DNA of 64,000 bases from an uncultured Victivallales bacterium (lineage in GTDB: Bacteria; Verrucomicrobiota; Lentisphaeria; Victivallales; CAZBDL01), in NCBI GenBank assembly GCA_964490525.1, contig CAZBDL010000001.1, positions 25,474-89,473 of the forward strand, written 5' to 3'. Of this stretch, positions 14,509 to 37,615 are shown piece after piece. The stretch's first letter is position 1; every line of letters begins with the position of its first letter. The position numbers were made by a program, and so were the translations under genes. The notes below the pieces were generated by a model. It saw nothing but the letters and a program-made list of their open reading frames with translations, was not told where the DNA came from and did not search any database.

Positions 14509-14530
14509 ACCGCCAGAAGTCTAGCGGTCT
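14507..14530. terminator. Hairpin AGACCGC-N10-GCGGTCT spanning the rep1 stop codon, inside a 63-nt block duplicated at 16513-16575
   Basis: 7-bp perfect stem. It lies between convergent gene ends (plus gene stop at 14506-08, rep1 stop at 14521-23). No U-tract. Confidence 0.4.
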
Positions 14531-16023
14531 GCCTTCCTTGGCCGACCGCGCCGCCGTGGGGGCTCTGACGGGGGTGAGCCAGTCAGCAGATATCGCGTGG
14601 CGACGAGGCCATACAGGCTGCGATCCTGGCGCAGCAATTCACGCACCTCGGAGGCCGGCGTGTCTGGATCGGGGGCGGGAATGCCGTCGTCATGGAACCA
14701 AACCAGGATTTGGCGCAGATTCTCGTCCGTCATATTGGCGCAGATGGATTCCATCAACTTGAGGGCTCCGTCCTCCTCCACCGGGGTAGCCGTCACCTCG
14801 ACGGGCGGGGCGACTTGCTCCCCCTGATTCAGGTGATCCTTTGCCCAGTACCGCCGCCAGGCAAACGGATCATTCTGCGCCTGCTCCCGGCCAAACTCCC
14901 CAAGCTGAACGAGCCACGTCTTGTATGCCTCCTCCATCGGCCTGCCGGGCTCGGCAAGCTCCGCCAGGGCCGCGATCTTCGACTCCATGGCGGCCCGCGC
15001 CGTTTCCCCGTCCCGTTCGGCCGCCCGGGCGGCAGCCTCCCCTTGGCGCATCTTCCGGCTCGCGACAAGCTCGCTGACCCTGGCGATGATTCGGTCGCGG
15101 AGAACGGCACCCTTCAACCCGTCGCGAAGGGCGTCATCGACAATCTTGCCGGCTTCGGCCATGGACACCAGCGAAAGCCAGTAGGTCCAGACGCGGCTGT
15201 CGGCAACCCCGGCACAGCGAACCTTGGCCGTGAGGACCTCGAAGGCCAGTTCCTCCTCCGTGGGATTGAGGTCGATCCCGGGCAGGTCGGGCTGGGCGGC
15301 GTCCCCTGCGGCCTCGCGCAAGGCGTTTGGCCGCCAGGAGAACTGGATTCGCCCCTTGGAGCCGCGCCCCTCCACCTCAACCGCAATCTTGACGTCAAGG
15401 ATGGAGGATATCTTTGAGATCGAAGGGGTGACGACCTTGATCATCATTTGGCCAAATGGGGAGAGGGAGGGCTCCAGGCGCATCTTGGCGGCAAGCTCGG
15501 CGCCTTCGATGGTGCAAATCCCAACAGAGTCCCATTGTGCCAGGATCATGTAGAGAGAGATGGGACGCATGCCGCGAAGCCGCTTGATGTTTGCAAGGTG
15601 AACCAGGATGAACCTGGCCTTGGCCTTGTCAAGAAGCCGAATGGAGATTTCAGAAAGGACGGCCGTGAACTCGCCGGTTCCCGGCTTGATCTCGATGTCC
15701 TGGAACAAGTCCGAAACGATGCTGTCGCCGGTTTTCGGGTCAGCGGGACCCTCGCAGTAGACGGTCCCCTTCTTGATGGCCACCGCATGGTCGCGCAGGG
15801 TCCGGTAGATTTCGTCCCGGCTTCCGCCCACGACCTGGTGAATGTCCGAAACGCGGCAGACGACCCGGTTGTCCAGGCGTGCGCCTTGCTGGTACATGCA
15901 GACAACGAAGAGCACCAGGCGCTGTTGGGTCTCGCTCAACGCGAGGACGCTGCCGAGCATGTCGTGTCCCAGCCTGGTGACAGAGTGCTGTGTTCCACCG
16001 CTTTTCGCCTTGCGCTTCCCCAT
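14521..16023 (-). CDS. Plasmid replication initiator (iteron-type Rep), paralog 1
   Basis: The N-terminal LALSETQQRLVLFVVC pattern is typical of winged-helix Rep_3-like initiators. Its own iteron set lies immediately upstream. C-terminal AT-hook-like PPRRRGRPRKADR. SD GAGGAGGAGG. Confidence 0.6.
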   Translation of the reverse strand: MGKRKAKSGGTQHSVTRLGHDMLGSVLALSETQQRLVLFVVCMYQQGARLDNRVVCRVSDIHQVVGGSRDEIYRTLRDHAVAIKKGTVYCEGPADPKTGDSIVSDLFQDIEIKPGTGEFTAVLSEISIRLLDKAKARFILVHLANIKRLRGMRPISLYMILAQWDSVGICTIEGAELAAKMRLEPSLSPFGQMMIKVVTPSISKISSILDVKIAVEVEGRGSKGRIQFSWRPNALREAAGDAAQPDLPGIDLNPTEEELAFEVLTAKVRCAGVADSRVWTYWLSLVSMAEAGKIVDDALRDGLKGAVLRDRIIARVSELVASRKMRQGEAAARAAERDGETARAAMESKIAALAELAEPGRPMEEAYKTWLVQLGEFGREQAQNDPFAWRRYWAKDHLNQGEQVAPPVEVTATPVEEDGALKLMESICANMTDENLRQILVWFHDDGIPAPDPDTPASEVRELLRQDRSLYGLVATRYLLTGSPPSEPPRRRGRPRKADR

Positions 16024-16167: not shown

Positions 16168-16313
16168 AAGAACTGTGGAAAGTTCGCGATTTGACCGGAT
16201 TAGTGCCGTTGAGATGCCGGGGCAACTGTGGAAAGTTCGCGGTTCTGCTGTGGAAATGTCGTGAAATCGCTGTGGAAAATTCACGGTTCTGCTGTGGAAA
16301 TGTCGCGATTATG
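16168..16313. repeat. Iteron array 1: five direct repeats with core CTGTGGAAA(N)TTCGCG/TCACGG
   Basis: CTGTGG cores start at 16173, 16226, 16248, 16270 and 16292; the last four are spaced exactly 22 bp apart. An AT-rich ATATAAAGAATAAAG block follows. Confidence 0.75.
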
Positions 16314-16540: not shown

Positions 16541-18057
16541 GCCTTCCTTGGCCGGCCACGCCGCCGTGGGGGCTCCGCCAGGTGATCCACCTCGATGTAG
16601 TCCCGGCCCTTCACCATCGGCTCGGATGGACCGTCCTCCGGGTCGCCCATGATCATCAGGCTCATCATCAGGGTTCGGCTGGTGTCATGCCCCTTGGCAT
16701 CCAGCTCCGCGACGCGGGCGCGGACCTGCGCCGCGCTGGATCCCACCGGCAGCCCCAGCAACTGGTTTCGCGCCGCAAGCCGCTCCAGCCTCTCGTCGGG
16801 CACGTCCGCAAGGGTGGGCCCCGGGGGCGGCGGAACCGGCTCCGCCGTGACGTCCACGGCCTCGCCGATCCGCCCGGAGCGCAGGGCGTCCTCCGCCCAG
16901 TAGCGGGTCCATTTCCCCGGCTCCTTCACCGCCATTTCCTGAGCGAACTCCCCCTGTCCCTCGATCCAGGCCAGGTACTCGGCGCGGTGCGGCCCGTCGT
17001 CTGCGGCCAGCGCCGCCAGGGACTCCACCTGGCCACGGTCCGGGCGCCCGGGGCCGGACGGGGCGGTGCCGCGGACTTCCGCCTCGCGACGGTTTGCGAC
17101 CAGGAGGGCATCGCTCACCTGGGCAACGATCCGATCCCGGAGGGCATGGTTCTTGAGCCCATCGCCAAGTGCCTTGTTGACTATTGTTGCTGTCTCTGTT
17201 GCCGACAACTGCCGCAGCCAATATCCATAGATTCGGTTGTCGCGTACTCCGGCAGCACGAACACGAGCGGTCAGAACCTCTAGCATAAGGTCGTCTTCAG
17301 ATATTTGAATCTTCATTCCTGGAAGTTCTGGTTGCCCGTCATCAGCAGCATCGCGAAGAGCATATGGTGGCCAGGAGAATATAACGCGGCCCTTGGTGCC
17401 GCGACCATGAACCTCAACCTTTACCTCGACGCCGAGGATGCTGGATATCTTCGAGATCGACGGATGAATGACCTGAAGCATGATGTGGCTCAATGCACGA
17501 TGGCTGCCAATGCGCAATGACTCGTACATTTCCGTAGATGAAACATCCCATGATCCAATGGCATCCCATTGGGCAAGAAGCAGGTAGAGGCTAACAGTCC
17601 ACCCCCCGTGCAGACGGCGGAGATTGGCTAGGTGAACCATGATGTACCGCGTCTTGAGTTCGGTCAACTTCTCGATGGTCTTTGCGGAAAGATAAACTGA
17701 AAACTCCCCGGTGGATGAGTCTATCTCGATATCATGGAAAAAACTTGTCACAAGCGTCTTGCCGTTTTCCGCATCAACCGGCTCGTCGCAATATATGGTT
17801 TTTGATTTCAGCGCGATGGCGTTGTCCCGCAGGGTTCTGTATATGACGTCCTTGTTCCCCCCAACAATACGGTGTATGTCGGGAACCTTGCACACCACTC
17901 TTGCGGATTTTTCAGGATCCTGTTGGTGGCGGCAAAAGACATAGAGAGCAAGACGTTGTTGCGTCTCACTCAACTCTATGAACCCAGACACCATGTCGTG
18001 GCCGATCTTCGTTGCACGCATCAGCCCAACGCCATCTCCCTTTGACCGTCGTCCCAT
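16531..18057 (-). CDS. Plasmid replication initiator (iteron-type Rep), paralog 2
   Basis: Collinear with rep1 along its whole length (roughly half the residues identical by eye), with the same C-terminal EPPRRRGRPRKADR. It has its own distinct iteron set upstream. Confidence 0.6.
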   Translation of the reverse strand: MGRRSKGDGVGLMRATKIGHDMVSGFIELSETQQRLALYVFCRHQQDPEKSARVVCKVPDIHRIVGGNKDVIYRTLRDNAIALKSKTIYCDEPVDAENGKTLVTSFFHDIEIDSSTGEFSVYLSAKTIEKLTELKTRYIMVHLANLRRLHGGWTVSLYLLLAQWDAIGSWDVSSTEMYESLRIGSHRALSHIMLQVIHPSISKISSILGVEVKVEVHGRGTKGRVIFSWPPYALRDAADDGQPELPGMKIQISEDDLMLEVLTARVRAAGVRDNRIYGYWLRQLSATETATIVNKALGDGLKNHALRDRIVAQVSDALLVANRREAEVRGTAPSGPGRPDRGQVESLAALAADDGPHRAEYLAWIEGQGEFAQEMAVKEPGKWTRYWAEDALRSGRIGEAVDVTAEPVPPPPGPTLADVPDERLERLAARNQLLGLPVGSSAAQVRARVAELDAKGHDTSRTLMMSLMIMGDPEDGPSEPMVKGRDYIEVDHLAEPPRRRGRPRKADR

Positions 18058-18229: not shown

Positions 18230-18392
18230 ACAGACTTTTTGGTGCAATTCATGTGCGCTTGCGGATATTTCGCCGCCCCGAGGGCATTATTTTCGATGCT
18301 CATCACAGACATTCCGGTGCAATTCTACAGACTTTTTGGTGCAATTTTACAGACTTTTTGGTGCAATTTTACAGACTTTTTGGTGCAATTCG
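18230..18392. repeat. Iteron array 2: direct repeats ACAGACTTTTTGGTGCAATT(TT)
   Basis: Copies start at 18230, 18305 (variant), 18327, 18349 and 18371; the last four have a 22-bp period. AT-rich TATATAAAGAATAAAAG follows. Confidence 0.8.
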
Positions 18393-18747
18393 TGCTTATA
18401 AGTCCTTGCATGATAATTACTTATGCTTTCCTAAATATATAAAGAATAAAAGGCATCTAAAGATGGGTTCGCTTCGCTCACGTCGCGCATGCGCGCGAGG
18501 CTGGCAGGCCATGGGAAATACGGGGGAGGGGAGAAATTCCCGGAGGCAGCCTTCGACCGGACCGGGATTGGCTGGCTGGAAGGGGAGGGCATCGCCCTTT
18601 GTCCTGGACCCCTTCCCAGATGGCCGGAAACGCACCGTCCAGGGCCATTTGCGGGGAAATCCGCCCAGGAGGCCGGACAAGGGGGGCAGATGCGGCGGAG
18701 CGTGGCGCATGGGGCATGGTTCTCCGTGACGAAAATATTTATACCAC

Positions 18748-18776
18748 TTGACACAACAATAAGCAAGACGATATTT
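18748..18776 (+). promoter_or_regulatory. cas operon promoter (TTGACA-N17-ATATTT)
   Basis: TTGACA at 18748-18753 and ATATTT at 18771-18776. SD GGAGGAGG lies before the cas5 ATG. Confidence 0.6.
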
Positions 18777-18804
18777 ACGCAACTCAAAACGGAGGAGGCG
18801 AGCG

Positions 18805-19407
18805 ATGGATCATGTCCTTGAGGCATGGGGCCCGTATGGCTGCTTCACCCGGCCCGACTTCGGGACGGAGCGGGTCAGCTACCCGGTGATCACCCCCTCG
18901 GCGGCCCGGGCGCTCTTCGAGGCGGTGTACTGGAAGCCGCAGATGGCCTGGCAGGTGACGCGGATCGAGGTCCTGCGGATGGGGCGAACGATGCCCCTGC
19001 GCACGAACGAGGTGAAGGCTCGGGCCGGCGCCAACCCGATCTTCGTGTCGGAGCACCGGATCCAGCGGCACAGCCTGATCCTGGCGGACATCGCCTACCG
19101 GCTGCATGCGGAGATCGTGTTCCTGGGCGGCGAGGCCCCCGGGCCGAAGCACACGGAGATGTTCCGCCGGCGCCTGGAGCGGGGCCAGGTCCACCACCGG
19201 CCCTATTTCGGGTGCCGCGAGTTCGCCTGCGAAGTGGGCCCGCCAACGGACAGGGAGCCGGAGCGAATCAGCCTTGACCTCGGCACGATGCTCCTCGACC
19301 GCGACTGGGAAGGGCTGGGCGACCCGCCCCGGTTCTTCCATGCCAGGATCGCGGACGGGACCATCATGGTTCCGGCGCGGCCGCTGCGCCAGGCAGGTGC
19401 CGCATGA
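18805..19407 (+). CDS. cas5c: Cas5c (Cas5d), type I-C pre-crRNA endoribonuclease and Cascade subunit
   Basis: LEAWGPYGCFTRPDFGTERVSYPVITPSAARALFEAVYWKP matches the hallmark Cas5d N-terminus. First gene of the cas5-cas8c-cas7 order. Confidence 0.9.
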   Translation: MDHVLEAWGPYGCFTRPDFGTERVSYPVITPSAARALFEAVYWKPQMAWQVTRIEVLRMGRTMPLRTNEVKARAGANPIFVSEHRIQRHSLILADIAYRLHAEIVFLGGEAPGPKHTEMFRRRLERGQVHHRPYFGCREFACEVGPPTDREPERISLDLGTMLLDRDWEGLGDPPRFFHARIADGTIMVPARPLRQAGAA

Positions 19408-20975
19408 TCGCCGCGCTGGCCAGGCTGCAGGAACGGCTGGTGGACGGGGGAGAGGCCCTGCCCGCCGGGTGGGAGAGGAGGAAGCTCACGGCCCTGGTGT
19501 GCGTGAACGAGGCCGGGCTTGGCATCGGCCTGCGCTTCCGCGAGGAGGATTTTCCCGTCCCCGTCCGTCCCCAGCGGGCGAACTCCATCGCTCCCGGGCT
19601 GGCCTGGGACACTCCGGAGTACGCCCTGGGCATCCCCCGGAAGTCGAGCCCGGAACGCACCGCCGAGATGCACCGGCTCTTCCGGCTGCGCCTCGACGCG
19701 CTGGACTGCGACGACCCCGGCCTGGAGGCCGTGCGCCGATTCCTCGCCAGGGAAGGGGACCGGCTGCTGTCCGGCATCGACCAGGTGGCCGCCCAGCCGG
19801 GCGCGACCCTCGGGTTCATCCTGCTCGACGACGAGGAGCCGGTCCACCTGCGGCCGGCCGTGCGGGCGGCGATCCAGGACGAACTGGACAGGGCGGCCGA
19901 TCCCGGCGAGGACGCCGAGGAGGGGCAATGCTCCATAACGGGGCGCGACGGGGCCATCGCCCGGCTCCACCCGAAGATCCGCTTCCCCGGCGGGCGGGCC
20001 AGCGGCACCAGCCTCGTCAGCTTCAACGCCCCCTCCCTTGAGCACTTCGGCAGGGAGCAGGGAGGAAACGCGGCCGTCGGGGAGGGCACGGCGGCCGATG
20101 CCGCCGCCGCGCTCAATGCCCTGCTGGCGCCGGACTCCCTGCGGAGGCTCATGGTCGAGGGACTGGCCGTCCTGGCCTGGACCGAGGGGCCGTCGCCGGC
20201 CGAGGGGCGCGTCATCCCGATGCTGGAGGGATCCGGCGACATCGCGGAGGAGGACCTGGAATCTTCGGATGCCGTCCACCTGGCGGTGCTGGCGCCTCGT
20301 GACGGGCGCCTCTCGGTCCAGCTCTGGGAGACCCTCCCCATGGGGACGCTGGCCGCCAGGATCGCCGAATGGCGGCGGCGGACGCGGCTGCCGGCCGACG
20401 CCGAGCCCCCGCCCCATTGGGCCGTGCTCCGTTCAATCCAGCGGGGAGGGGGCCAGGTGCCCCACGGGATCGCCACCGCGTACCTTCGGGCCATGGTCCT
20501 CGGGCTGCCGCTGCCGCCGTCCCTGGTGCGCCCGGCGCAGGAGGCCGTGCTCGCCGCGCTCGCGGCGCGGCGCCCCGTGCCGCCGGCCATCGCCATCGTC
20601 AACCATTCGGCCATGGAGGGCCGCGAACCCATGAACGAGGACATCCTCCTGCCGGCCGGGCAACAGTCGGAGGCCTACCGCCTCGGCCGGTTCTTCGCCG
20701 TCGTCTCCTGCGCCTGCCGCAAGGCCGGGCTCGACCGGAACGCCCCCCAGGCCGCCATGCGCCCCAGGGCCATGGCGGAAAGGGCCATGGCCAAGTACAA
20801 CGGCTACAGCATGGGCAAGGGGCTCCGCGTGCATTACGACAAGATCATCGACGACATCCTCGCGGGCGTCTCCGATCCGGTCCCGGAAACCCTCGGCCCC
20901 GTCCAGCGGGGAGAGTTCATCCTCGGATTCCACCACCAACGCAAGGCCATCTTCACCAAGGGAAAGGGCAACTGA
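19404..20975 (+). CDS. cas8c: Cas8c (Csd1), type I-C large subunit
   Basis: 523-aa ORF between cas5c and cas7c, with an ATGA overlap with cas5c. Position and size fit Csd1. The sequence was not independently recognised motif by motif. Confidence 0.75.
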   Translation: MIAALARLQERLVDGGEALPAGWERRKLTALVCVNEAGLGIGLRFREEDFPVPVRPQRANSIAPGLAWDTPEYALGIPRKSSPERTAEMHRLFRLRLDALDCDDPGLEAVRRFLAREGDRLLSGIDQVAAQPGATLGFILLDDEEPVHLRPAVRAAIQDELDRAADPGEDAEEGQCSITGRDGAIARLHPKIRFPGGRASGTSLVSFNAPSLEHFGREQGGNAAVGEGTAADAAAALNALLAPDSLRRLMVEGLAVLAWTEGPSPAEGRVIPMLEGSGDIAEEDLESSDAVHLAVLAPRDGRLSVQLWETLPMGTLAARIAEWRRRTRLPADAEPPPHWAVLRSIQRGGGQVPHGIATAYLRAMVLGLPLPPSLVRPAQEAVLAALAARRPVPPAIAIVNHSAMEGREPMNEDILLPAGQQSEAYRLGRFFAVVSCACRKAGLDRNAPQAAMRPRAMAERAMAKYNGYSMGKGLRVHYDKIIDDILAGVSDPVPETLGPVQRGEFILGFHHQRKAIFTKGKGN

Positions 20976-20976
20976 C

Positions 20977-22071
20977 ATGCAGCAGCAGGAAACCATCGGC
21001 CGGCACGACCTCGTGCTCCTCTTCGACGTCAGGAACGGCAACCCCAACGGCGACCCGGACGCGGGCGGCATCCCGCGAGTGAACCCGCTCAACGGGCACG
21101 GCATCGTCACCGACGTGTGCATCAAGCGCAAGATCCGCAACTTCGTCCAGCTCGACAAGGGGTTCGAGCCGCCGTACGACATCTACGTCCGGGAGAAGAG
21201 CGTCCTCGGCGCCGCCCACTTCAAGATCTGCGAGGAGCTGGGGATCGACGCCGGCGCGTCGGCGGTCCGCGAGATCGCCCCGGAGATCGCCGAGGCCATC
21301 GGCATGACCGAGTTGCCCGAGGGCGTCGAGGTCATTGAGGACGGCGACGCGCGGCGGCTGGTCGTGGCGTCCACCGCCGACGTGGCCGCCGTGAAGCGGT
21401 ACGTCAAGGAATCCGGGCTCGACAAGGCGGCCGCCAGGGCCGTGGCAGACACCCTCAAGGAGGCGCGGCCCCGCAAGCTCTCACGCGACGAGTCCGAGCG
21501 CGGATGCGAGGCCATGTGCCGGCGCTACTTCGACATCCGCGCCTTCGGCGCCGTCCTCTCCCTCAAGTCCGCCCCCAACTACGGGCAGGTGCGCGGCCCC
21601 GTCCAGGTCACCTTCGCCGAGAGCCTGGACCCCATCACCCCCGTCGAGACGACCGTCACGCGCTGCGCCGTGACCACCGAGGCCGAGTCCGCCGACCAGG
21701 GAGGGGAGAACCGCACCATGGGCCGGCGCACCATCGTCCCCTACGCCCTCTACCGTGCCCATGTCTTCGTCTCCGGCCCGTTCGCCGCGCGTACCGGGTT
21801 CGGCCAGGCGGACCTCGACCTGGTGCTCCGGGCCCTCGCCGGCATGTTCGAGCACGACCATGCCGCCGCACGCGGCGAGATGAACGTACGGGCCCTGTGC
21901 GGCTTCCGGCACGCCTCCCCCATGGGCAACGCCCCGTCGGGCACGCTCCTGGAGCGAATCAAGGCCACCAGGGCGCAGGACCGCCCCTGCCCCGCGTCGT
22001 TTGCCGACTACCGGATCGAGACGGACACCGGCAACCTCCCCGAGGGCGTCGAGTTCATCCGCGTCGTCTAG
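20977..22071 (+). CDS. cas7c: Cas7c (Csd2), type I-C backbone subunit
   Basis: LLFDVRNGNPNGDPDAGGIPRVNPLNGHGIVTDVCIKRKIRNFV is the characteristic Csd2 N-terminal signature. Confidence 0.9.
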   Translation: MQQQETIGRHDLVLLFDVRNGNPNGDPDAGGIPRVNPLNGHGIVTDVCIKRKIRNFVQLDKGFEPPYDIYVREKSVLGAAHFKICEELGIDAGASAVREIAPEIAEAIGMTELPEGVEVIEDGDARRLVVASTADVAAVKRYVKESGLDKAAARAVADTLKEARPRKLSRDESERGCEAMCRRYFDIRAFGAVLSLKSAPNYGQVRGPVQVTFAESLDPITPVETTVTRCAVTTEAESADQGGENRTMGRRTIVPYALYRAHVFVSGPFAARTGFGQADLDLVLRALAGMFEHDHAAARGEMNVRALCGFRHASPMGNAPSGTLLERIKATRAQDRPCPASFADYRIETDTGNLPEGVEFIRVV

Positions 22072-22253
22072 CCGCGCGAACCCCAAGCTGACACCACGCC
22101 ACGCACAACGGTTCGCGGAACCCGCAACCCGCTCCACCATCAACACATGCAGCTTCCCGGGGCGACCCGGGAGCCATGCCGGCGGGGCGGCCGGGGCGGG
22201 TTCGCGCGAACGGTTCCTTGACAACTTGGCGCACAATGACTTGCGCATTGACC
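22072..22253 (+). promoter_or_regulatory. CRISPR leader with GGTTC/GAACC palindromes and a -35-like TTGACA
   Basis: GGTTCGCGGAACC at 22110-22122. The 12-nt palindrome GTTCGCGCGAAC at 22200-22211. GGTTCC at 22212-22217 abuts TTGACA at 22218-22223. No convincing -10 was found. Confidence 0.45.
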
Positions 22254-23859
22254 CCTTCGCCTCGCACGCGAGGCGCGGATTGAAACAACACATAAGCGGC
22301 GGTGATGGCGTCCTCGAAACCTTCGCCTCGCACGCGAGGCGCGGATTGAAACGGCCTGGACAAAAAAATCCTCATCGGGCATCTCCTTCGCCTCGCACGC
22401 GAGGCGCGGATTGAAACCGTTGCGGCGGACGCGGGGGACGCGCTGCGAGCCTTCGCCTCGCACGCGAGGCGCGGATTGAAACGCGGATTACGCGGCGTGT
22501 ATATTTGGGCGAAAGGCCTTCGCCTCGCACGCGAGGCGCGGATTGAAACCGGGTGATCTCGGTGCGGCCAATGGGAAACAGACCTTCGCCTCGCACGCGA
22601 GGCGCGGATTGAAACCTCGTGCCTTGACCCGAGGCTTGTATCAATTGAGTCCTTCGCCTCGCACGCGAGGCGCGGATTGAAACGAGTCGGGCACGTCCTC
22701 GAGGTAGCCGTTCACCGCCTTCGCCTCGCACGCGAGGCGCGGATTGAAACCGGGCGGTTGATATCCATACTGCGAACTACGCCACCTTCGCCTCGCACGC
22801 GAGGCGCGGATTGAAACCGGCTCCGCATGATCAGGGCATACAGCCCGCTCCCTTCGCCTCGCACGCGAGGCGCGGATTGAAACCTGCCGTTGCTGGCGAT
22901 CCTCGACGGGCATTCCTTCGCCTCGCACGCGAGGCGCGGATTGAAACCCGTCCAGCCCGTGGCGGACGACGTGGCCGAACTCCTTCGCCTCGCACGCGAG
23001 GCGCGGATTGAAACATGAGGGTCTTAGAGCTGATGCTGCTGGGGTACCCTTCGCCTCGCACGCGAGGCGCGGATTGAAACTTGCGCGCGCGCGGCCTCAA
23101 AAACGAGCAACGACCTTCGCCTCGCACGCGAGGCGCGGATTGAAACTCGGCGAGGCCGAGGATCGCCCCCTGGGCGGCGCCTTCGCCTCGCACGCGAGGC
23201 GCGGATTGAAACCCCGGCATGCCAGGCAGCTCCGGCTGGTCGAGCCTTCGCCTCGCACGCGAGGCGCGGATTGAAACCATGTCCTACGGACATAGCGTGG
23301 CAGGGGCGAGCCTTCGCCTCGCACGCGAGGCGCGGATTGAAACTGTGTGCACGGGAAATGTATGCAGCAACGCTTCCCTTCGCCTCGCACGCGAGGCGCG
23401 GATTGAAACACCGTCGGGCAGATGGCGGACTACCTGGGGATCGCCTTCGCCTCGCACGCGAGGCGCGGATTGAAACTCTCAATCACCATCGCCTGGGGGG
23501 GAGGACATTCCTTCGCCTCGCACGCGAGGCGCGGATTGAAACCCAGCAGGGGTACCTGCCGAGACATGCCGGGCACCTTCGCCTCGCACGCGGGGCGCGG
23601 ATTGAAACAATTTTTCCGTGGATGACGCCCAGGCGAAAGCCCCTTCGCCTCGCACGCGAGGCGCGGATTGAAACCCTAATTGTCTGCCAGCTCCCAGTCG
23701 AGGATCCTTCGCCTCGTACGCGAGGCGCGGATTGAAACGACGATTGACCGTGGATTCCTGTGGATGGCTTCTTCGCCGCATAATGAGGCGTGGATTGAAA
23801 TCATTGCCAAGCTGAGTGATATGTTCATATTCGCCCGATACCCGGGCGCGGATTGAAAC
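22254..23859 (+). CRISPR. Type I-C CRISPR array: 25 repeats (23 conserved plus 2 degenerate at the distal end) and 24 spacers
   Basis: The repeat is (C)CTTCGCCTCGCACGCGAGGCGCGGATTGAAAC, 32-33 nt, with a 7-bp stem CGCCTCG/CGAGGCG and the I-C-typical ATTGAAAC 3' end. The period is 64-68 bp. Point variants occur at 23577 and 23707. The degenerate repeats are at 23771-23801 and 23829-23859. Confidence 0.97.
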
Positions 23860-24184
23860 ATTGTAGCGTCCAATGGCAGGAAAAATCCCAATCCCCGCCC
23901 TGGCGGGGAGGGGAACCATTTCTGGCTGGAAGGGGAAATATCGGGAATCCTGTCCCCGGGTGGCCGGGGACGCGCTTTCCGGGCCCCCGGCAGGGGAATC
24001 CGGCCCAGAGGAAGGGGCGACATCGCCGCGAAGGTGCGTCAAAATGGCCCACGACTGCCTTGGCGTGGCAGTTAAAAATTCCACCTGGCAATCTCCGGGC
24101 TGATTCAACCCCAGCAGGAAGCTGGACGGCCGTCCATGGCACCGCCGCAGGCGGCTAGAATGGACTGGCCGGATTGTCCCGTTT

Positions 24185-24630
24185 GTTCCATGTGTCCGCG
24201 TGTTCCTGGTTCGCTCCCCGTTCCAGGGCCGGGCACAGGGCGCCGGCCTCCGCATGTTCCAGGTGTGCCGCCCCCCGTTCCATGGTTCCCTGGTTCCTCC
24301 CCTGGTTCCCTAGTTCGCCACGCAACCCAACCCTGGCCGGTGTCCCGGCGTCCGGGGTGATGTTCCCTTGTCGTTCCCGGGGTGACCGATGGGCGTTCCC
24401 GTTCCTTGGTTCAGTCCCCTGTTCCCCGGTTCCCTGAACTCGGGCGCGTTGCGGCCGGGGTGGCCGGCGCAGCCGGGCAATGTTCCCTGGTTCCCCCCGG
24501 TTCCCTGTTGTTCCTGCCGGTTCCCCGGCTCTGCCCGGGCCGCCGGCGCGGGATGGCGCCTGGCCCTGGGGGGGGCGCCCCACGGCCTAAATGACACAAG
24601 ATCCAACCATGTTCCGGGTGTGGATGTTCC
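24185..24630 (+). repeat. Non-coding block with about 21 same-strand copies of GTTCC (mostly (G/T)GTTCC(C/T))
   Basis: Examples are at 24277, 24285, 24292 and 24304, and at 24482, 24490, 24499, 24509 and 24519, with 7-12 bp spacing. All are on the plus strand. The only overlapping ORFs are low-complexity shadows. Confidence 0.7.
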
Positions 24631-24717
24631 CGGGTTGCCCGCCGGCGGAGGCCTTGCGGGGGGGCTTTTTAGCCGACATGGCAATGGGGCTAAAATGTTA
24701 GATAATCCTATAAAAAC

Positions 24718-24746
24718 TTGACAACGAGATTCAGGCGGCCGATGGT
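24718..24746 (+). promoter_or_regulatory. Candidate promoter (TTGACA-N17-GATGGT) with an AT-rich upstream element
   Basis: TTGACA at 24718-24723, preceded by TAAAATGTTAGATAATCCTATAAAAAC. The -10 is weak. Confidence 0.4.
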
Positions 24747-24784
24747 ATGGGCGAACCAAGGCACCCAGCACCGGGAGGACCGCG

Positions 24785-25168
24785 ATGAAGGCGCTGCTGA
24801 TCGACGCGACGGGACGGCGGATCCGGGAGGTGCAGACGGACGGCACCCTGCAGGACTGGTATGCGAAGCTGGACTGCCGGACGGTGGAGATGCGCGACCT
24901 GGACGAGGCGGGTCGCAACGTCCTGGTCTTCGACGAGGAGGGGCTCTTCACGAAGCGCGACGGGTTCACGGTGCGGGGGCAGTTCTTCGCCGGCAGCGGC
25001 CTGGTGATCGGCTACGACCGGCGGCGGGACCGGGCGGCCGACCCGACCGCAGCGCCGGAGGAGCTGGGGATCCTCTTTGGCGACCTGAGCGACAGCCAGG
25101 CCGAGACGATCCTGGAGGAGGGCATCAAGGTCTTCGCCTGGGACGACCAGGGCGGAGTGGCAATGTAG
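24785..25168 (+). CDS. Hypothetical protein (127 aa), tail DDQGGVAM
   Basis: Complete ORF with SD GGGAGGA upstream. Confidence 0.55.
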   Translation: MKALLIDATGRRIREVQTDGTLQDWYAKLDCRTVEMRDLDEAGRNVLVFDEEGLFTKRDGFTVRGQFFAGSGLVIGYDRRRDRAADPTAAPEELGILFGDLSDSQAETILEEGIKVFAWDDQGGVAM

Positions 25169-25193: not shown

Positions 25194-25655
25194 ATGGGCA
25201 AGTACTGGGTCACGAACGTCCTCGAGGAGGGGAGCGCCGGCCAGGCGGGGCAATGCAAGATCCAACTGCACCGCCGGGAAATGAGGAACGGAGAGGCGTT
25301 CTCGGTCCTGGCCGGGCGCGGCACCGGGATGGTGGTCGCCGAATGCCGCGAAGGGGGGCGCCGCATGGTCAGCCTGGACGGCATCACCTATGCCAGCAAG
25401 CGGGAGATGGAGCTGTTCCGGGCGCACGCCCAGGAGCAGGGGGCGGGAGCGTTCGGGCTCCTGTGCCACATGGTCCAGGAGGCGCCGTGCCCGGAGCTGC
25501 CCATAGGCGTCGGGCAGTACAGGGAGGGGGCAGGGAAGGTGCGCTGTTCCGTGACCGACGCGCTCCAGCATGCCTGTTCCAGCGATCCCCGGCGGGAGCT
25601 GCCCATGGTCCATGTGGGCGAGAACCAGGAAGACCAGGGCGGAGTGACGATGTAG
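25194..25655 (+). CDS. Hypothetical protein (153 aa), tail EDQGGVTM
   Basis: ATG at 25194 has an AGGAG 9 nt upstream. The alternative ATG at 25173 lacks an SD. Confidence 0.5.
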   Translation: MGKYWVTNVLEEGSAGQAGQCKIQLHRREMRNGEAFSVLAGRGTGMVVAECREGGRRMVSLDGITYASKREMELFRAHAQEQGAGAFGLLCHMVQEAPCPELPIGVGQYREGAGKVRCSVTDALQHACSSDPRRELPMVHVGENQEDQGGVTM

Positions 25656-29678: not shown

Positions 29679-29801
29679 GAGGACCCCACATCTACATGGA
29701 TGTTGACCCCGGGTTTGGCATACCATGGCTACATCGGGCCTCCAACCACACGCAGACTTGCATACAACTCTACCAATCGTATATCTAACAGGATTATGAT
29801 C

Positions 29802-29835
29802 TGTAGGCACGGGAAATGTATGCAGCAACGCTTGA
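29802..29835 (+). other. Protospacer-like self-match to CRISPR spacer 17 (23344-23377)
   Basis: 30 of 34 positions are identical, with an uninterrupted 27-nt run (29807-29833). Mismatches fall at spacer positions 4, 5, 33 and 34. The 5' flank at 29799-29801 is ATC. The match is in the same orientation as the crRNA sense strand. Confidence 0.9.
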
Positions 29836-29860
29836 CATACACGATTCATATGCCATATTT
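29832..29860 (+). promoter_or_regulatory. Promoter of the RHH-relaxase operon (TTGACA-N17-ATATTT)
   Basis: TTGACA at 29832-29837 and ATATTT at 29855-29860. Same architecture and same -10 hexamer as the cas promoter. Confidence 0.6.
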
Positions 29861-29895
29861 GTAGCAAAGTACACAACAGCAGCAGGAGAATGACC

Positions 29896-30123
29896 ATGGC
29901 AGGCAAGCCCGAGGCATCGGTATCCGTCCGTGTTGACGCGATCGTGTACGCTGAAATGAGGGGAATCGCCGCAGAGGAAGGAATCTCAATCACGGATCTG
30001 GTTTCCGCGTGCTTCAAGGCATATGTTCGGGAACGCATGGCCGCAAATGCCGGCGTTGTCCGGATCGAAGAACGCCTGGTCGCCATCGAGCAAAAGCTCA
30101 ACCTCTTCCTTGAGGTCGAATGA
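29896..30123 (+). CDS. Ribbon-helix-helix (CopG/MobC-like) relaxase accessory protein
   Basis: VSVRVDAIVYAEMRGIAAEEGISITDLVSACFKAYV fits a beta-alpha-alpha RHH. ATGA overlap with the relaxase gene. ATG at 29896 has AGGAGA 7 nt upstream (alternative start 29890). Confidence 0.6.
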   Translation: MAGKPEASVSVRVDAIVYAEMRGIAAEEGISITDLVSACFKAYVRERMAANAGVVRIEERLVAIEQKLNLFLEVE

Positions 30124-31166
30124 TGCCGAACGTGATCATCAAGATCACCAGCAGAATCCCCCCGCAGAAGATCGGGGAGGCGCTGGGCTACGCCGACGAG
30201 ATGCACAAGGAGAAGATCCATGAGGAAGTCAAGGTTGGCCTGGGCGGATACCTGTCGCTCTGCTGCCATGGCTCGCCCTTGGCGACGCTGGTGAAGCGCT
30301 CGGCCGGAACCAAGAGCATCCGCATGGTCTTTTCGTTCTCGGAAGAGTATGTCAATCGACTTGAGGACAGGATGATGCATGTCAACCGTGTCCTGGAGCA
30401 TGTCGTCCATGGCACAATGGCCGAGTTCAGCAAGCACCTCTTCGGAGCAACGCATGAGATCGGCTACGCCTTCGGGCGCCACGACGGCACGGACAACAAG
30501 CACTTCCACCTAGTCGTCTGCCCCAGGTCATGGTCGAACAGGTCGGTGTTCGTTGTGGGCGACATCAATATCCCAGGAGAGAAAGTACCTGCCAAGGGGA
30601 TGACGCCACGGTGGAAGATTATGACTGGCGCCGCCAACCGCATCTCCGATGAGATCGTCTCGGCGGAGCCCGGGACCAAGGCCGGCTTCCTGTCGATGGA
30701 GATGCTGATCGAACGGCTCTTGCAGCTCGTCAACACCGGAGCCATTGAGCATGCAGAGGTTCAGGATCTGATCCATGCCCTGCAGCTTGAGATCAGGAAT
30801 GAACGCCTCGGGATCAAGAGGCCGATCAAGGTGGTTCGGCTCCAGCGCAAGGTCGGGAAGTTCCTGGCGGAGCGGGGCCTCCTGGTCCGCAGCAAGCCTC
30901 GTCGGAAACCTGCGGTGAACTCATGGAGAGATGTCGGCAACCCCTTCTATATCGACGACGTCAACCCGATGGCGGCCGTATCCTCGGGAAACTCTGGAGG
31001 GGGTCAAGGCATTGCCTGGCCGGGACTGAAGCGGCCGGCGCAGGAGATCGGGCAACAGCAGGTCGCCAGGCCCGCCCCGGCGCAACGGGTCGAGCCGCCG
31101 GCGCGAACCATCGCCCCGCCGGCCATCGACCATGGACACCACGAGGACGGCGGCATGAGGCCGTAG
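30120..31166 (+). CDS. Conjugative relaxase / mobilisation nuclease (MobA/VirD2 family)
   Basis: The N-terminal VIIKITSRI...ALGYADE layout and the histidine triad HDGTDNKHFHLVV (HxDx..HxH) are typical of MOBP/MOBQ relaxases. Confidence 0.75.
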   Translation: MMPNVIIKITSRIPPQKIGEALGYADEMHKEKIHEEVKVGLGGYLSLCCHGSPLATLVKRSAGTKSIRMVFSFSEEYVNRLEDRMMHVNRVLEHVVHGTMAEFSKHLFGATHEIGYAFGRHDGTDNKHFHLVVCPRSWSNRSVFVVGDINIPGEKVPAKGMTPRWKIMTGAANRISDEIVSAEPGTKAGFLSMEMLIERLLQLVNTGAIEHAEVQDLIHALQLEIRNERLGIKRPIKVVRLQRKVGKFLAERGLLVRSKPRRKPAVNSWRDVGNPFYIDDVNPMAAVSSGNSGGGQGIAWPGLKRPAQEIGQQQVARPAPAQRVEPPARTIAPPAIDHGHHEDGGMRP

Positions 31167-33501: not shown

Positions 33502-35697
33502 ATGACCCCGTTCTTCGCGCTCAACGACATCCTGGCCATCGCCGCCGCCATGGCGCTGGTCCTTGGCCTGTCGGGGCCGCCGTCGCTCGGCTGGATCGGC
33601 GTGCTCGCCCCGGGCCTGCTCCTGCCCATCCTGCGCGAGCGCGGGGTCAAGGTGCCGCCGGCGGGATTCGTGGCCACGGCCGCGGTCGCGGCGCTCGGAT
33701 GCCTCGGCTTCCTGGCGCCGGACATTCCCTGGCTGCCGCATCCCGCCGCCGCCGTCGCCTCGCCGGCGTTCATCCTCTGGTGCCTGGCCATGGCCGCCGC
33801 CCTGGCCGGGAGCCAATGGCCCGTGGAGTGCCGGAAGACCATCCTCTGCGAGTATGCCGGCGTGGCGCTGCTGACCTGGGCCTACCGGACGAACGGGGCC
33901 TTCCTCCCGCGCGACGGCGAGCAGCTCCTCAGCGGCGCCTATGCGTTCCCCGTGGGGGGCGGACTGGCCCTGATCGTCCTGGCCCAGCTCTTCCATGAGC
34001 CCGACACAGGCAAGGGCAAGGGGACCCTGCGCGGCAAGGCCGGCGACCATAAGCCGGTGGTGTCCCTTGGCGGCATCGACTGGGGCATCCGCGACTTCGT
34101 GCGCGGCTGGCTCATCACCGGCGTGACCGGCTCCGGCAAGACCGTGGCCGCCATCAAGACCATGATGATCCAGATCTTCCGCAACCGGCCCGACTGGGGC
34201 GGCTGCGTGGTCGACGAGAAGGGATCGTTCCACGAGATCGTCCGCGAGATCGCCGTGGGCCAGGGCAAGGCCGACAAGATCGTGGTCCTGCAGGTGCGCC
34301 CCGAAGGCGCCCCCGCCCAATGGCGGCCAAAGAACCGGTACAACATCCTCTCCTACCCGGGGCTTCCCGCCCCCACCTACGCCAAGCTCATCGCGGACAC
34401 CGCCGCCGCCGTCACCGGCAAGGGGGAGGAGAAGGCGTTCTTCAAGACCCAGGCGCTCGCCCAGATGTCGGCCGGCATCGCCCTCCTGGAGCTTGTCGCG
34501 AAGATGGAGAACGTCCCCCGCGAGTCCTGCGTCCGGCTCGACCGCCTCTACGAGACCATCTCGTCCCCCGTCGAGGCCCGGCGGGCCGTCGAGCGCGTCT
34601 CCCACGCCATCCATGCCCGCTACGGCGACCAGGTGGAGCGCCTGTTCAACTACCTCCCGGCCCCCGTCCGGGCGACGGTCTCCCAGCAGGTCGACGCCGC
34701 CTACACGAACATCCAGGAGGCGAACGAGAAGCGAGGCCGGCAGATGGCCGTCTTCGACCCCAACGTCCGGGCCGGCTCCCGGACCAGCGGGCAGCCCCTC
34801 TTCCACCCCCTCCTGGTCGAGGCCGTGGTCAACGAGTCCAACCAGCCCACCGCCCCGCCGTTCATGCGCCGCATGCTGCCCCTGTCCGACCTTGAGCTGC
34901 TCACCCAGTACCACAAGGTGGCCAGCCACTTCAACGACAAGTTCCTCTCGCAGCCGCCCGACCAGCTCGGCGGCGTGACATCCACCATCGACAACTACCT
35001 GCGGTTCTTCCAGGCCCCCGCCATCGCCGAGACGTTCTGCACCGACCGCAACACCGTCGACTTCTGCGACATCGACAAGGGCACGATCTTCGTCATCTCC
35101 ATGCCCCAGACCTACGCCGTCGAGCGGCAGTACCTGAACACGATCTTCAAGCTGCTCTTCTACACCCACGCCCTGCGCCGGTTCGACCAGCCGCCGGACG
35201 TCCGCGCCGGTAACAACCTGCTCATCTTCTGGGCCGACGAGGCCCAGGGCGTCGTCACCGCCTCCGACGGCGGCATGGAGGACTACTCCGTGGTCGACAA
35301 GACCCGGGAGGCCATGGCCACCGTCGTCTTCGCCACCCAGTCCAGCACCTCGTTCCTCCCCAAGCTCAACGACAAGAAGACCGAGGTGCTCATGCTCAAC
35401 CTGGCGAACCGCGTCTTCTTCGGCTGCGCCGACGAGCGCGGCGCCGAGCTTGCCGCCAAGACCATCGGCAAGACGCGGCAGAAGTACCAGGACGGGATTT
35501 CCCATGGCCGGGGCGGCAGCGCCGTCCAGTACAAGTTCCAGGACGAATACATCTTCAAGCCCCACGAACTGCGGGCGCTGAACAAGTTCGAGGCCATCGT
35601 CAACCATTGCGAGAAGGGCGCCATCCGCACCTACATCCCCCCCGTCGAGGCCGACGGTTCCACGTCCCCGTGGTTCCGCAAGGGGCGGACGTTGTGA
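33502..35697 (+). CDS. Type IV coupling protein (TraG/VirD4/TraD family)
   Basis: N-terminal TM segments, Walker A GVTGSGKT and Walker B-like LLIFWADEAQ. 731 aa. Located downstream of the relaxase. Confidence 0.8.
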   Translation: MTPFFALNDILAIAAAMALVLGLSGPPSLGWIGVLAPGLLLPILRERGVKVPPAGFVATAAVAALGCLGFLAPDIPWLPHPAAAVASPAFILWCLAMAAALAGSQWPVECRKTILCEYAGVALLTWAYRTNGAFLPRDGEQLLSGAYAFPVGGGLALIVLAQLFHEPDTGKGKGTLRGKAGDHKPVVSLGGIDWGIRDFVRGWLITGVTGSGKTVAAIKTMMIQIFRNRPDWGGCVVDEKGSFHEIVREIAVGQGKADKIVVLQVRPEGAPAQWRPKNRYNILSYPGLPAPTYAKLIADTAAAVTGKGEEKAFFKTQALAQMSAGIALLELVAKMENVPRESCVRLDRLYETISSPVEARRAVERVSHAIHARYGDQVERLFNYLPAPVRATVSQQVDAAYTNIQEANEKRGRQMAVFDPNVRAGSRTSGQPLFHPLLVEAVVNESNQPTAPPFMRRMLPLSDLELLTQYHKVASHFNDKFLSQPPDQLGGVTSTIDNYLRFFQAPAIAETFCTDRNTVDFCDIDKGTIFVISMPQTYAVERQYLNTIFKLLFYTHALRRFDQPPDVRAGNNLLIFWADEAQGVVTASDGGMEDYSVVDKTREAMATVVFATQSSTSFLPKLNDKKTEVLMLNLANRVFFGCADERGAELAAKTIGKTRQKYQDGISHGRGGSAVQYKFQDEYIFKPHELRALNKFEAIVNHCEKGAIRTYIPPVEADGSTSPWFRKGRTL

Positions 35698-35712: not shown

Positions 35713-35741
35713 TTGACAAATTACGCACAACCGATATATTG
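35713..35741 (+). promoter_or_regulatory. Promoter (TTGACA-N17-ATATTG)
   Basis: TTGACA at 35713-35718 and ATATTG at 35736-35741. Confidence 0.6.
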
Positions 35742-35768
35742 GACTTGGAGGCATCGGAGGACAGCATC

Positions 35769-36290
35769 ATGGCGCTCATCGAATACCGCATCGGCGAGGT
35801 CGCCGAACGCCTCGGGCTCTCGATCCCGACCGTGCGCAACTACTGCCTTGAGGGGAAGCTCAAGTTCACCATGACCCCGGGCGGGCACATGCGCATCTCC
35901 CAGGAGGCCCTGGCCGACTTCCTCAAGGGGGACATCAACCGGCAAGGCCCCCTCGACAACCGCACGGTCCGGGGGCTCTCCGGGCCCGCCCGCCGCCAGG
36001 CGATCACCCCGCGCGTCCTGCCCCTGGCCGCCGCCGCCACCTACATCGGCGTGCATCCGAACACCCTCCGCGCCATCTGCCACGACGGGAAGATCCCCTG
36101 CTTCATCACCCCGGGCGGCCACTACCGGATCACCATCAAGGCCCTCGACGAGTACATCGAGCAGCGGCGCATGGCGGCCAAGGCCTACATCCAGGACCAT
36201 GCCCAGGCCGCCGAGGAGCGGGGAGGGCACTCCCGGGTCGCCGAGGACACCGCCGGCTACGGCGGCGAGGGCGAGGGCATGAAGCCCTGA
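35769..36290 (+). CDS. DNA-binding protein with two tandem excisionase/MerR-type HTH domains
   Basis: Two copies of the pattern: IGEVAERLGLSIPTVRNYCLEGKLKFTMTPGGHMRI and AAATYIGVHPNTLRAICHDGKIPCFITPGGHYRI. Confidence 0.7.
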   Translation: MALIEYRIGEVAERLGLSIPTVRNYCLEGKLKFTMTPGGHMRISQEALADFLKGDINRQGPLDNRTVRGLSGPARRQAITPRVLPLAAAATYIGVHPNTLRAICHDGKIPCFITPGGHYRITIKALDEYIEQRRMAAKAYIQDHAQAAEERGGHSRVAEDTAGYGGEGEGMKP

Positions 36291-36302: not shown

Positions 36303-36336
36303 ACCGCTTGACAACGTGATGTCAAGCGGTATATTG
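36303..36336 (+). promoter_or_regulatory. parA promoter (TTGACA-N17-ATATTG) embedded in an 11-bp perfect inverted repeat
   Basis: The repeat is ACCGCTTGACA (36303-13), spacer ACGTGA, TGTCAAGCGGT (36320-30). The -35 is at 36308-13 and the -10 at 36331-36. Confidence 0.65.
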
Positions 36337-36361: not shown

Positions 36362-37150
36362 ATGCGCATCATCGCCGTGATCCAGGAGAAGGGCGGCGTC
36401 GCCAAGACGACCAGCGCGTTCAACCTCGGCGCCGAGTTCGCCCTGGCCGGCCGCCGCGTCCTCATGGCCGACTGCGACACGCAGGCGGGCCTGACCTCCA
36501 TGTGCATCGACGAGAAGTCCCAGGCGGGGCCGTTCCTGGAGGAGGCGCTCATGCGCCCCGGACCGCCCCAGCCCATCGCCCCCGCCGCCATCCGCGACAG
36601 GCTCCACCTCCTGCCATGCACCCACGACGGCATGAAGCGGGCGGTGGACCACCTGCTGCTCGCCAAGGTGGGCCGCGAACTGCGCCTCCGGCAGCTCCTC
36701 CAGCACTACCGGCACGACTATGACCTCTGCCTGCTCGACTGCCCGTCAGGCCTCGACCTCATGCCCCTGAGCGCCCTCATCGCCGCCGACCAGGCCATCG
36801 TGCCCGTCGGCGTGGGCAAGGCCGAGATCCTCTGCGTCCGGACCCTCGCCGACGCCGTGCGGGAAGTGGACGCGGTGCGCGACGGCTACGGCCAGGGGCC
36901 GGTCGGGTTCGGTCCGCTCTTCCTGACCATGACCCGCCCCGGCACCGTCGTCGCCAGGACCACGCGGGCCTACGCCGAACGCCTGTTCCCGGGCCGCCTC
37001 CTGGCGACCGAGGTGCGCCACTACCTGGCGGTCAAGTCCGCCTCGGCCGCCTGCCGCACCATCGCCGAGCACAGCCCCGGATGCCCCGCCGCCGAGGACT
37101 ACCGCATGATCGCAAGGGAGATCGGGAAATGGAAGGCAAAGCCGCTGTAG
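36362..37150 (+). CDS. parA: ParA/Soj-family partition ATPase
   Basis: Deviant Walker A, IAVIQEKGGVAKTTSAFNLG, and MADCDTQ. Confidence 0.85.
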   Translation: MRIIAVIQEKGGVAKTTSAFNLGAEFALAGRRVLMADCDTQAGLTSMCIDEKSQAGPFLEEALMRPGPPQPIAPAAIRDRLHLLPCTHDGMKRAVDHLLLAKVGRELRLRQLLQHYRHDYDLCLLDCPSGLDLMPLSALIAADQAIVPVGVGKAEILCVRTLADAVREVDAVRDGYGQGPVGFGPLFLTMTRPGTVVARTTRAYAERLFPGRLLATEVRHYLAVKSASAACRTIAEHSPGCPAAEDYRMIAREIGKWKAKPL

Positions 37151-37243: not shown

Positions 37244-37615
37244 ATGGCAAGAAGGACCGAAGACTGGGGACTGCCGACGGCGGACGCAACCGCGGCAACG
37301 AGGGCACGCCCCAGGCGTAGGCTCATCGAGGGCGGAAGGATCACCACCAAGAACGTGGGGATCCACTTCCGCATCGACACCTATGCCGGCCTCAAGAAGT
37401 TCCTCTCCGAGGTCGGCGTCGCCCTGGAGGGCAAGGTCGACTCGCGCAGCATCCAGCCGGGGCCATTCCTCTCCGCCATCCTGGAGAAGGTCGTCCACGA
37501 GACCATCCCGGAGGCATCGGCCGGCGCCAGGGGCCAGGCCCGCAAGCGCATGGTGGACCTGTTCCTCGCCGTCAAGGAGGGACGGTTCCGCATCGACTGG
37601 GAGGACAGGGGATGA
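37244..37615 (+). CDS. Hypothetical protein in the position of a partition adaptor (ParB/ParG analogue?)
   Basis: ATG at 37244 with GGAAGGAA upstream, directly downstream of parA. No recognisable motif. Confidence 0.35.
   Translation: MARRTEDWGLPTADATAATRARPRRRLIEGGRITTKNVGIHFRIDTYAGLKKFLSEVGVALEGKVDSRSIQPGPFLSAILEKVVHETIPEASAGARGQARKRMVDLFLAVKEGRFRIDWEDRG

Follow-up and report, generated by a model that had tools for sequence, protein, structure and literature searches.

A polar array of GTTCC motifs upstream of the DUF3846 operon of a Victivallales plasmid, a probable docking array for a plasmid-specific DNA-binding protein

We analyzed a stretch of 64 kb (positions 25,474 to 89,473 of contig CAZBDL010000001.1, assembly GCA_964490525.1; hereafter the window) from an uncultured Victivallales bacterium, in which a non-coding block at positions 24185-24630 is filled with co-oriented copies of the pentamer GTTCC. 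The window belongs to an 89.7-kb replicon, a conjugative plasmid whose lineage has hardly been sampled. With its degenerate sites included, the GTTCC array extends from 24176 to 24638 on the plus strand (21 exact and ~11 one-mismatch sites). It is preceded by a conserved non-coding flank (23909..24184) and followed by an AT-rich tract with a promoter-like site (24670..24750, plus strand), which would serve an operon that starts at 24785 with a gene of the DUF3846 family (24785..25168, plus strand). The putative promoter consists of a -35 box TTGACA at 24718-24723 and a weak -10-like ATGGTAT, and the array sites nearest to the -35 box lie 50-100 bp upstream of it. Besides the GTTCC block, the only non-coding repeat arrays in the window are the iterons and the CRISPR array.

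The plus strand of 24185-24630 contains 21 exact copies of GTTCC, and the minus strand contains none. At the rate seen in the remainder of the window, 0.67 copies per strand are expected in 446 bp (Poisson p = 2.3e-24), and the runner-up segment of this size, on either strand, holds five copies. These numbers bear out the sequence-only reading of the same DNA, which had reported about 21 same-strand copies where well under one was to be expected. If one mismatch is allowed, 32 sites are found on the plus strand and three on the minus strand of 24150-24660, compared to 8.4 expected per strand; the ~11 one-mismatch forms in the array (GTCCC, GTTCG, GTGCC, GTTCA, and GTTGC) are all on the plus strand. 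The 5-bp core is unchanged across the 21 exact copies, and the flanking bases vary around an extended consensus (T/G)GTTCC(C/T). The distances from site to site cluster between 7 and 12 bp; the modal value is 8 bp, and values of 9-11 bp are frequent; for the exact sites alone, 9 of the 20 adjacent spacings measure 8-12 bp (p = 0.011 versus random placement). The close spacing described earlier is thus correct, except that some of the coordinates given as examples were one base early, with the preceding G or T included. Overall, the sites form five runs of 4-7 (~24176-24224, 24256-24317, 24342-24433, 24482-24524, and 24600-24638), which are separated by GC-rich spacers of 30-80 bp. The runs mostly start with ATGTTCC and contain repeated GGTTCCC, and short tandem stretches with a period of 8-10 are present in the block.

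The closest relative of this locus was found through the DUF3846 protein, which has a single homologue among 5.8 billion proteins (73% identity). The contig encoding this homologue, L001, lacks CRISPR-Cas and carries Rep3, iterons, a conserved non-coding stretch, a GTTCC block, and DUF3846 in succession within 1.5 kb. In its array (9430-9870), 16 sites are exact and 15 have one mismatch, and with respect to the operon they all have the same orientation. In an alignment of the two blocks, the core columns are 71% identical and the remainder 54%, and only 9-10 of the 21 site positions are shared. We therefore conclude that selection acts on the motif and its number and not on the position of individual sites. 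The flanking genes of the two plasmids are ~50-90% identical, with no change in the array core. The right part of the array also contains a 23-mer, CCTAAATGACACAAGATCCAACC (24586..24608, plus strand), whose conservation was read from the sequences. Its core, the 14-mer CACAAGATCCAACC (24595-24608), is found in L001 as well; in the second relative, L004, it is inverted as GGTTGGATCCTGTG (238-251), on the opposite side of a G-rich GGGGGGGCGCC element.

L004 (JGI contig Ga0485107_001921) encodes a type IV coupling protein (T4CP) that is 69% identical to that of the window, and shows full synteny. The region available upstream of its first DUF3846 gene is 420 bp long, and its array copy ends at the edge of the locus. 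An unbiased k-mer test of this region gave six copies of TGTAC on the plus strand and none on the minus strand (0.26 expected, p = 3.5e-7). At the locus edge, sites that include three copies of TGTAC are spaced by 9 or 18 bp. In L004, the corresponding position before this operon is thus occupied by a variant core, TGTACC, and the change from GTTCC to GTACC affects one base. A search of related plasmids had been proposed together with the original description of the block, and it has revealed both the motif cluster of L001 and this one-base variant. Since L001 and L004 come from one metagenome sample and their cores differ, a plasmid-specific reader is favored over a shared host factor. A one-base core switch between co-occurring plasmids is also what a determinant of incompatibility or specificity should show, so that the earlier suggestion of an incompatibility determinant is compatible with these data.

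The position of the array is conserved in all three plasmids, the proteins of which are 40-70% identical. It lies directly upstream of the DUF3846 promoter-like site in the window, L001, and L004, and the first gene after it belongs to the DUF3846 family in each case (two paralogues in L004). The promoter box ACTTGACAA is kept in the window and in L001, and L004 retains TTGACA (TTTGACAT). Beyond these three, the plasmid family has almost no database relatives. DNA searches of plasmid and phage collections with the window gave no match, nor did tblastn with DUF3846; a protein search with Rep3 retrieved nothing but the query. Single-sequence scans of genomes and metagenomes with the T4CP yielded nothing, nor did scans of viral contigs, and an alignment-based genome scan was empty. 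The alignment-based metagenome scan detected 34 more distant loci that share only the T4CP (some also VirB4). These contain neither the array nor the candidate binder genes described below, and their best 5-mer cluster, of eight copies, is scattered in coding sequence. The closest T4CPs on plasmids are ~32-34% identical (Opitutaceae, Termitidicoccus), and the more remote homologues include one from a Victivallales metagenome-assembled genome.

The block does not behave like a gene. The GC content at third codon positions (GC3) of the open reading frames across it is 0.57-0.75 and that at second positions (GC2) is equally high, compared to a GC3 of 0.88-0.95 and a GC2 of 0.42-0.48 in the neighboring genes. 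Moreover, their translations are less conserved with L001 than the underlying DNA, and the gaps in the alignment do not come in multiples of three. Based on codon-position GC and translated conservation, a protein-coding function was rejected, in agreement with the earlier statement that no credible open reading frame covers the block. Likewise, the block was rejected as an RNA. An Rfam search gave no match in it (only degenerate CRISPR repeats were matched), both of its strands fold slightly worse than dinucleotide shuffles (z = +0.73 and +0.87), a terminator scan at the block found none, and no CsrA homologue was detected among the window genes. A promoter-like match on the minus strand is directed into the block, and a T-run at 24670 is absent from L001.

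The flank between 23909 and 24184 is 79-86% identical to L001 and contains three GGGAATCC-type motifs and a hairpin. Inverted copies of the array motif had been described here. The one at 23910 (GGGGAACC) is indeed an inverted copy, and the other two (GGGAATCC at 23944 and GGGGAATCC at 23993) belong to a different conserved motif. This motif is present in three copies per plasmid in the window and in L001, between the iterons and the array, where ~110-bp repeated units with CTGGCTGGAAGGGGAAAT and GGGAATCC motifs can be distinguished (window 23909-24015, L001 9076-9250). The hairpin, an imperfect one of 45 nt (24128-24172; CGGCCGTCCAT...ATGGACTGGCCG, enclosing CCGCC-GCA-GGCGG), is located immediately 5' of the first GTTCC, in the best-conserved part of the intergenic region (85.5% identity to L001). 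Its DNA fold has a z-score of -1.6, and one stem pair is altered on both sides relative to L001 and still paired. It might act as a signal for single-strand initiation or be recognized by a protein.

The invariant core with its variable flanks, the single polarity, the register of 8-10 bp, the turnover of sites, the variant core of L004, and the fixed position argue for an array that is read as duplex DNA by a protein. We therefore think that the block is probably a docking array for a plasmid-specific DNA-binding protein. The general idea behind the roles proposed from the sequence alone, a cis-acting array that binds a protein, is the best supported reading, ahead of a gene or an RNA: the core is more conserved than the flanks, the polarity is uniform, L004 has its own variant, and RNA structure and Rfam matches are absent. 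Beyond this, we tentatively favor, at somewhat less than even confidence, an array with a centromere-like or positioning role that in addition controls the neighboring operon. In this model, one protomer or domain of a sequence-specific protein encoded on the plasmid would occupy each (T/G)GTTCC core, and neighbors would bind head-to-tail ~8-10 bp apart within the runs of 4-7 sites, so that the five runs would give rise to an extended polar nucleoprotein complex of ~450 bp. It would sit in the leading half of the plasmid, directly before the promoter-like site of the DUF3846 "establishment" operon. Partition or positioning would be driven by the plasmid ParA as the probable motor, and the same complex would probably regulate the adjacent operon, a mode of action known from the stbDRs/StbA of R388 and the omega sites of pSM19035.

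The genes for such a system can be found in the conserved backbone, to which a small ParA and a tandem winged helix-turn-helix (wHTH) protein belong. ParA (36362..37150, plus strand; 262 aa) is of the small Walker type without an N-terminal helix-turn-helix; should the array be a centromere, this protein may act as its motor. Its gene lies inside the transfer operon, between the T4CP (33502-35697) and VirB4 genes. The first candidate binder is encoded between the T4CP and ParA genes (35739..36290, plus strand) and has two tandem excisionase/BldC-like wHTH domains of the HTH_17 family (2e-24, two stretches; TIGR01764 1e-20, two matches above the cut-off). It matches the BldC model with 2e-9, which is below the cut-off (37 bits versus 77), and a tandem HTH_17 protein is also present in L004. 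This protein may bind the array. The second candidate is the 123-aa partner of ParA (37244..37615, plus strand), downstream of which homologues of VirB4/TraC, TrbL, and TrbI are encoded. Searches with hidden Markov models gave no match for the partner, and an exhaustive HMMER search among 1.8 billion representatives found two true members plus one spurious match. Its AlphaFold2 model is of low confidence (predicted local distance difference test score, pLDDT, 44) and shows a beta-alpha-alpha order compatible with a ribbon-helix-helix (RHH) fold. The structure model of DUF3846 was too poor for use (pLDDT 35). The three candidate binders are 28-42% identical between the window and L004. Since all of them diverge strongly, co-variation with the motif cannot discriminate among them.

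Several observations weigh against the favored model. Centromeres of type Ib usually adjoin the par operon, its genes or promoters. The array has the repeated short boxes of such a site, 21 exact and 11 degenerate ones in runs of 4-7, but it neither adjoins the par operon, being 11.7 kb away from parA, nor do its boxes occur in the par promoter. No GTTCC was found at the promoters of the wHTH and parA genes. Instead, the parA promoter (36303-36330) contains a perfect palindrome with 11-bp arms, ACCGCTTGACA-N6-TGTCAAGCGGT, which overlaps the -35 box and is unrelated to the array motif. At the corresponding position of L004 (12830-12860), three TATAG boxes are located 8 bp apart. The palindrome and the TATAG boxes are probably par operators unrelated to GTTCC. 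In addition, parA may serve transfer rather than partition, given its location in the type IV secretion operon and a faint match of the L004 ParA homologue to VirC1. The models of the ParA partner and DUF3846 are of low confidence. The distance of the nearest sites from the -35 box means that simple steric repression is not obvious. Finally, ~26 kb of the replicon lie outside the window, and the array is known from three plasmids only, with the L004 copy cut by the locus edge. The idea of a ParA-dependent centromere, which had been raised before, is therefore plausible as such, and the lack of any further non-coding array in the window apart from the iterons and the CRISPR array speaks for it; the distance from parA, the place of parA in the transfer operon, its GTTCC-free promoter, and the low-confidence RHH assignment of its partner count against it.

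Plasmids use arrays of short direct repeats for their centromeres, copy-control sites, and transfer switches, and to our knowledge nearly all studied examples are from Proteobacteria and Firmicutes. A short-direct-repeat docking array on a plasmid is thus of a well-known kind; the sequence, size, strict polarity, and position of this one, and its plasmid family, are new. The closest parallels for a centromere are parH/ParG of TP228 and parS/omega of pSM19035. These combine very short degenerate boxes in a 7-8 bp register with small dimers that bind cooperatively, and they too are located upstream of promoters and work with a small ParA motor (PMC3130281; PMC9499535). At least four contiguous 7-bp repeats are needed for omega to activate ParA, and the pSM19035 heptads occur in both orientations (PMC9499535). 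Those arrays span ~50-100 bp, whereas the one described here covers ~450 bp in a single orientation, is GC-rich, and lies far from parA. A second parallel is StbA of the IncW plasmid R388, for which 2 x 5 direct repeats around the stbABC promoter, adjacent to the origin of transfer (oriT), are required in cis for stability and for the control of transfer (PMC3098194). The R388 repeats are short and co-oriented, as ours are, and lie around or before the promoter of the leading side's first operon, where the putative oriT would also place our array; both plasmids encode a ParA-like ATPase (PMC3098194). They differ in being 2 x 5 regular 9-bp repeats with an 11-bp period beside oriT, compared to 21-32 sites with a 5-bp core at irregular 7-12 bp spacing, 5.2 kb from the putative nick; moreover, the first gene after our array is DUF3846, unlike in the stb operon of R388. 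No StbA homologue was recognized in the window, where no search was aimed at StbA. If its binder were identified, the array would provide a compact model for the divergence of segregation or regulatory specificity, for 5-bp core specificity through multimerization, and for the control of an establishment operon in a non-model conjugative plasmid.

The main rival to the centromere-like array shares its architecture and dispenses with partition. The tandem wHTH protein would polymerize head-to-tail on GTTCC and bend or wrap the DNA upstream of the weak DUF3846 promoter, in a purely regulatory or architectural role that would switch the establishment operon and perhaps transfer. BldC/Xis-type proteins are known to bind ~9-bp direct repeats head-to-tail in variable numbers (PMC5859096), and both the 8-10 bp spacing of the array and the conservation of a tandem HTH_17/excisionase protein in the backbone agree with such a filament. 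So does the placement of the array before a promoter-like site with a perfect -35 and a poor -10 in all three plasmids. However, the BldC model is matched below its cut-off (see above), and BldC operators have 2-4 sites in which an AT-rich AATT core is followed 4 bp downstream by a C-G pair, unlike the (T/G)GTTCC core in a GC-rich context. The 20-30 sites over 450 bp also far exceed the known operators of this class, and the promoter of the wHTH gene itself lacks the motif. We regard a filament without a partition role as rather unlikely, though as a serious contender.

Another explanation depends on where plasmid transfer starts. A nick-like site, (A/T)ATCC(T/A)G|T, is present on the minus strand of the intergenic region upstream of a gene for a 75-aa protein (29896-30123 in the window) in all three plasmids, compared to an expectation of 0.08 per region (window 29692-31166; L001 14435-15975; L004 6671-8233). 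In the window, it reads AATCCTG|T (29788..29795, minus strand), has an inverted repeat 5' of it, and precedes the 75-aa gene and a relaxase-like 348-aa gene. The 348-aa gene is located upstream of the T4CP and has a conserved HDxTDNKHFH block. Three of five members of its family match the Pfam Relaxase model (PF03432), with a best E-value of 1.4e-4 for a relative; the window copy, at 0.056, is below the threshold. The 75-aa protein shows weak PrgO/HicB-like matches. The putative nic would thus be at ~29.79 kb, with the minus strand being transferred if the polarity is read as in MOBP systems, which we take to apply here. This assignment would put both the DUF3846 operon and the array into the leading region, and the array would then be 5.2-5.6 kb away from the putative nic. 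The orientation of the operon, for which the transferred strand (T-strand) would be the template, agrees with that reported for leading-region genes (PMC11541004).

The block could then be a polar single-strand signal that is read in the recipient. On the putative T-strand, 5'-GGAAC-3' would occur 21 times immediately 3' of the establishment operon with its promoter, and these copies would be used for priming or for the loading of a plasmid factor; the resulting complementary-strand synthesis would make this operon double-stranded, and thus expressed, first. The absolute polarity would suit such a signal, as would the putative nick and transfer polarity, by which the block would belong to the leading region and, looking from oriT, lie past the promoter, and the conserved hairpin that adjoins the array. 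The DUF3846 promoter region contains no Frpo-like hairpin (DNA fold z = -0.05 in the window and +0.74 in L001), so that the operon, without an Frpo-like single-stranded promoter, would need duplex DNA. If true, this would be a previously undescribed cis element of the leading region, a functional alternative to Frpo-type single-stranded DNA promoters. Nevertheless, we consider it improbable. No primase or single-stranded-DNA-binding gene was recognized in the window, a host primase does not explain why the motif differs between plasmids of the same sample, direct repeats are equally natural for proteins that bind duplex DNA, and the oriT assignment and transfer polarity are themselves inferred.

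Replication control by the block, either through additional iteron-like sites for Rep3 (titration or handcuffing) or as a second origin, is very unlikely. The plasmid has two intact Rep3 genes in tandem, each with its own 22-bp iterons (initiator 1, 14521-16023, minus strand, iterons 16226-16308; initiator 2, 16585-17994, minus strand, iterons 18230-18394), and may therefore carry two replicons. Like the array, these iterons are direct repeats in a Rep-proximal intergenic region; the L001 block shares a 1.5-kb intergenic region with the Rep3 gene and its iterons, and an AT-rich tract adjoins the block. However, the true iterons are 22 bp long, contain no GTTCC, and lie beside each rep gene, with which they vary. 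The Rep and iterons of L001 are similar to the second set (54% identity), and the first Rep is 40-45% identical to that of L001. With Rep only 40% identical, the iterons different, and the array core unchanged, the array has to be placed outside the Rep/iteron module. It has also survived an insertion of 5.2 kb that separates it from the iterons in the window. The handcuffing through Rep that had been suggested earlier is thus unlikely, since the block is retained while Rep and iterons are swapped.

Equally hard to credit is a role as part of oriT, in which the array would bind a relaxosome accessory protein, as TraK does at the RP4 oriT or VirC1/VirC2 at overdrive. Its location in the transfer backbone of a conjugative plasmid, the precedents of StbA and TraK, and the faint VirC1 match of the L004 ParA homologue could be quoted in its favor. 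Yet no conserved nick-like site was found at the block, and the nick-like site and inverted repeat, together with the 75-aa and relaxase-like genes downstream of them, lie 5.2 kb away. An oriT at the block itself was rejected, because a nick-like site and a relaxase-like gene are present elsewhere in all three plasmids.

A decaying minisatellite, in which slippage of an 8-10-bp unit would have produced a functionless repeat, might explain the short tandem stretches of this period and the turnover of site positions between relatives. Such a neutral origin is nevertheless highly unlikely in view of the 5-bp core that is invariant in 21 copies with varying flanks, the higher identity of the core (71% versus 54% for the rest of the block), and the recurrence of the array at the same place in three divergent plasmids with a coherent one-base core change in L004. 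Finally, a non-coding RNA, be it a CsrA/Rsm-type sponge from the minus strand or a GUUCC-repeat RNA from the plus strand, is extremely improbable: the 21 GGA-containing GGAAC motifs in ~450 nt resemble CsrB/RsmZ in number and the minus-strand promoter-like match points into the block, but in contrast to CsrB/RsmZ there is no promoter-terminator unit, structure, CsrA gene in the window, or Rfam match, and the minus-strand variant of L004, GGTACA, has lost the GGA.

The insertion between the iterons and the block is the CRISPR-Cas module (18690-23905). It consists only of cas5d, csd1 (cas8c), and cas7 (18805-22071) and then an array of 23 repeats; cas3, cas1, cas2, and cas4 were not recognized in the window. 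Compared to L001, the cas genes and repeats are a clean 5.2-kb insertion, as window positions 18688 and 23909 both correspond to ~9148 of L001, and the insertion point falls within the region of ~110-bp repeated units. The vicinity of the GTTCC block to CRISPR, noted from the start, is therefore accurate in that the block begins ~325 bp past the last degenerate repeat, but it is accidental, L001 having the block without CRISPR-Cas. Two palindromes, the perfect GTTCGCGCGAAC and the imperfect GGTTCGCGGAACC, are present in the CRISPR leader (22105-22230). These had been thought to be built from the same half-site as the array, but their half-sites are GTTCG. One GGTTCC does abut the TTGACAAC -35 box of the leader, a promoter box that is common across the plasmid, and a link of this copy to the reader of the array is possible.

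Spacer 17 of the CRISPR array (23344-23376) matches the plasmid itself at 29802-29834 (30 of 33 positions, 27 of them contiguous, E = 6e-10), and this target falls precisely into the interval from the putative oriT nick to the -35 box of the relaxase operon. Positions 4, 5, and 33 of the spacer are mismatched, and the 5' flank of the target is ATC; the canonical protospacer-adjacent motif of type I-C is TTC. The match suggests that the plasmid-encoded Cascade is aimed at the oriT/relaxase promoter of its own family, in competition with relatives or for self-regulation. The remaining spacers gave no match to the window, L001, or L004. Further downstream, at 59749-62252, the window contains a restriction-modification module with an Eco57I-like N6-adenine methylase and a XamI-family endonuclease, which has a low GC content (52%) and was probably acquired recently.

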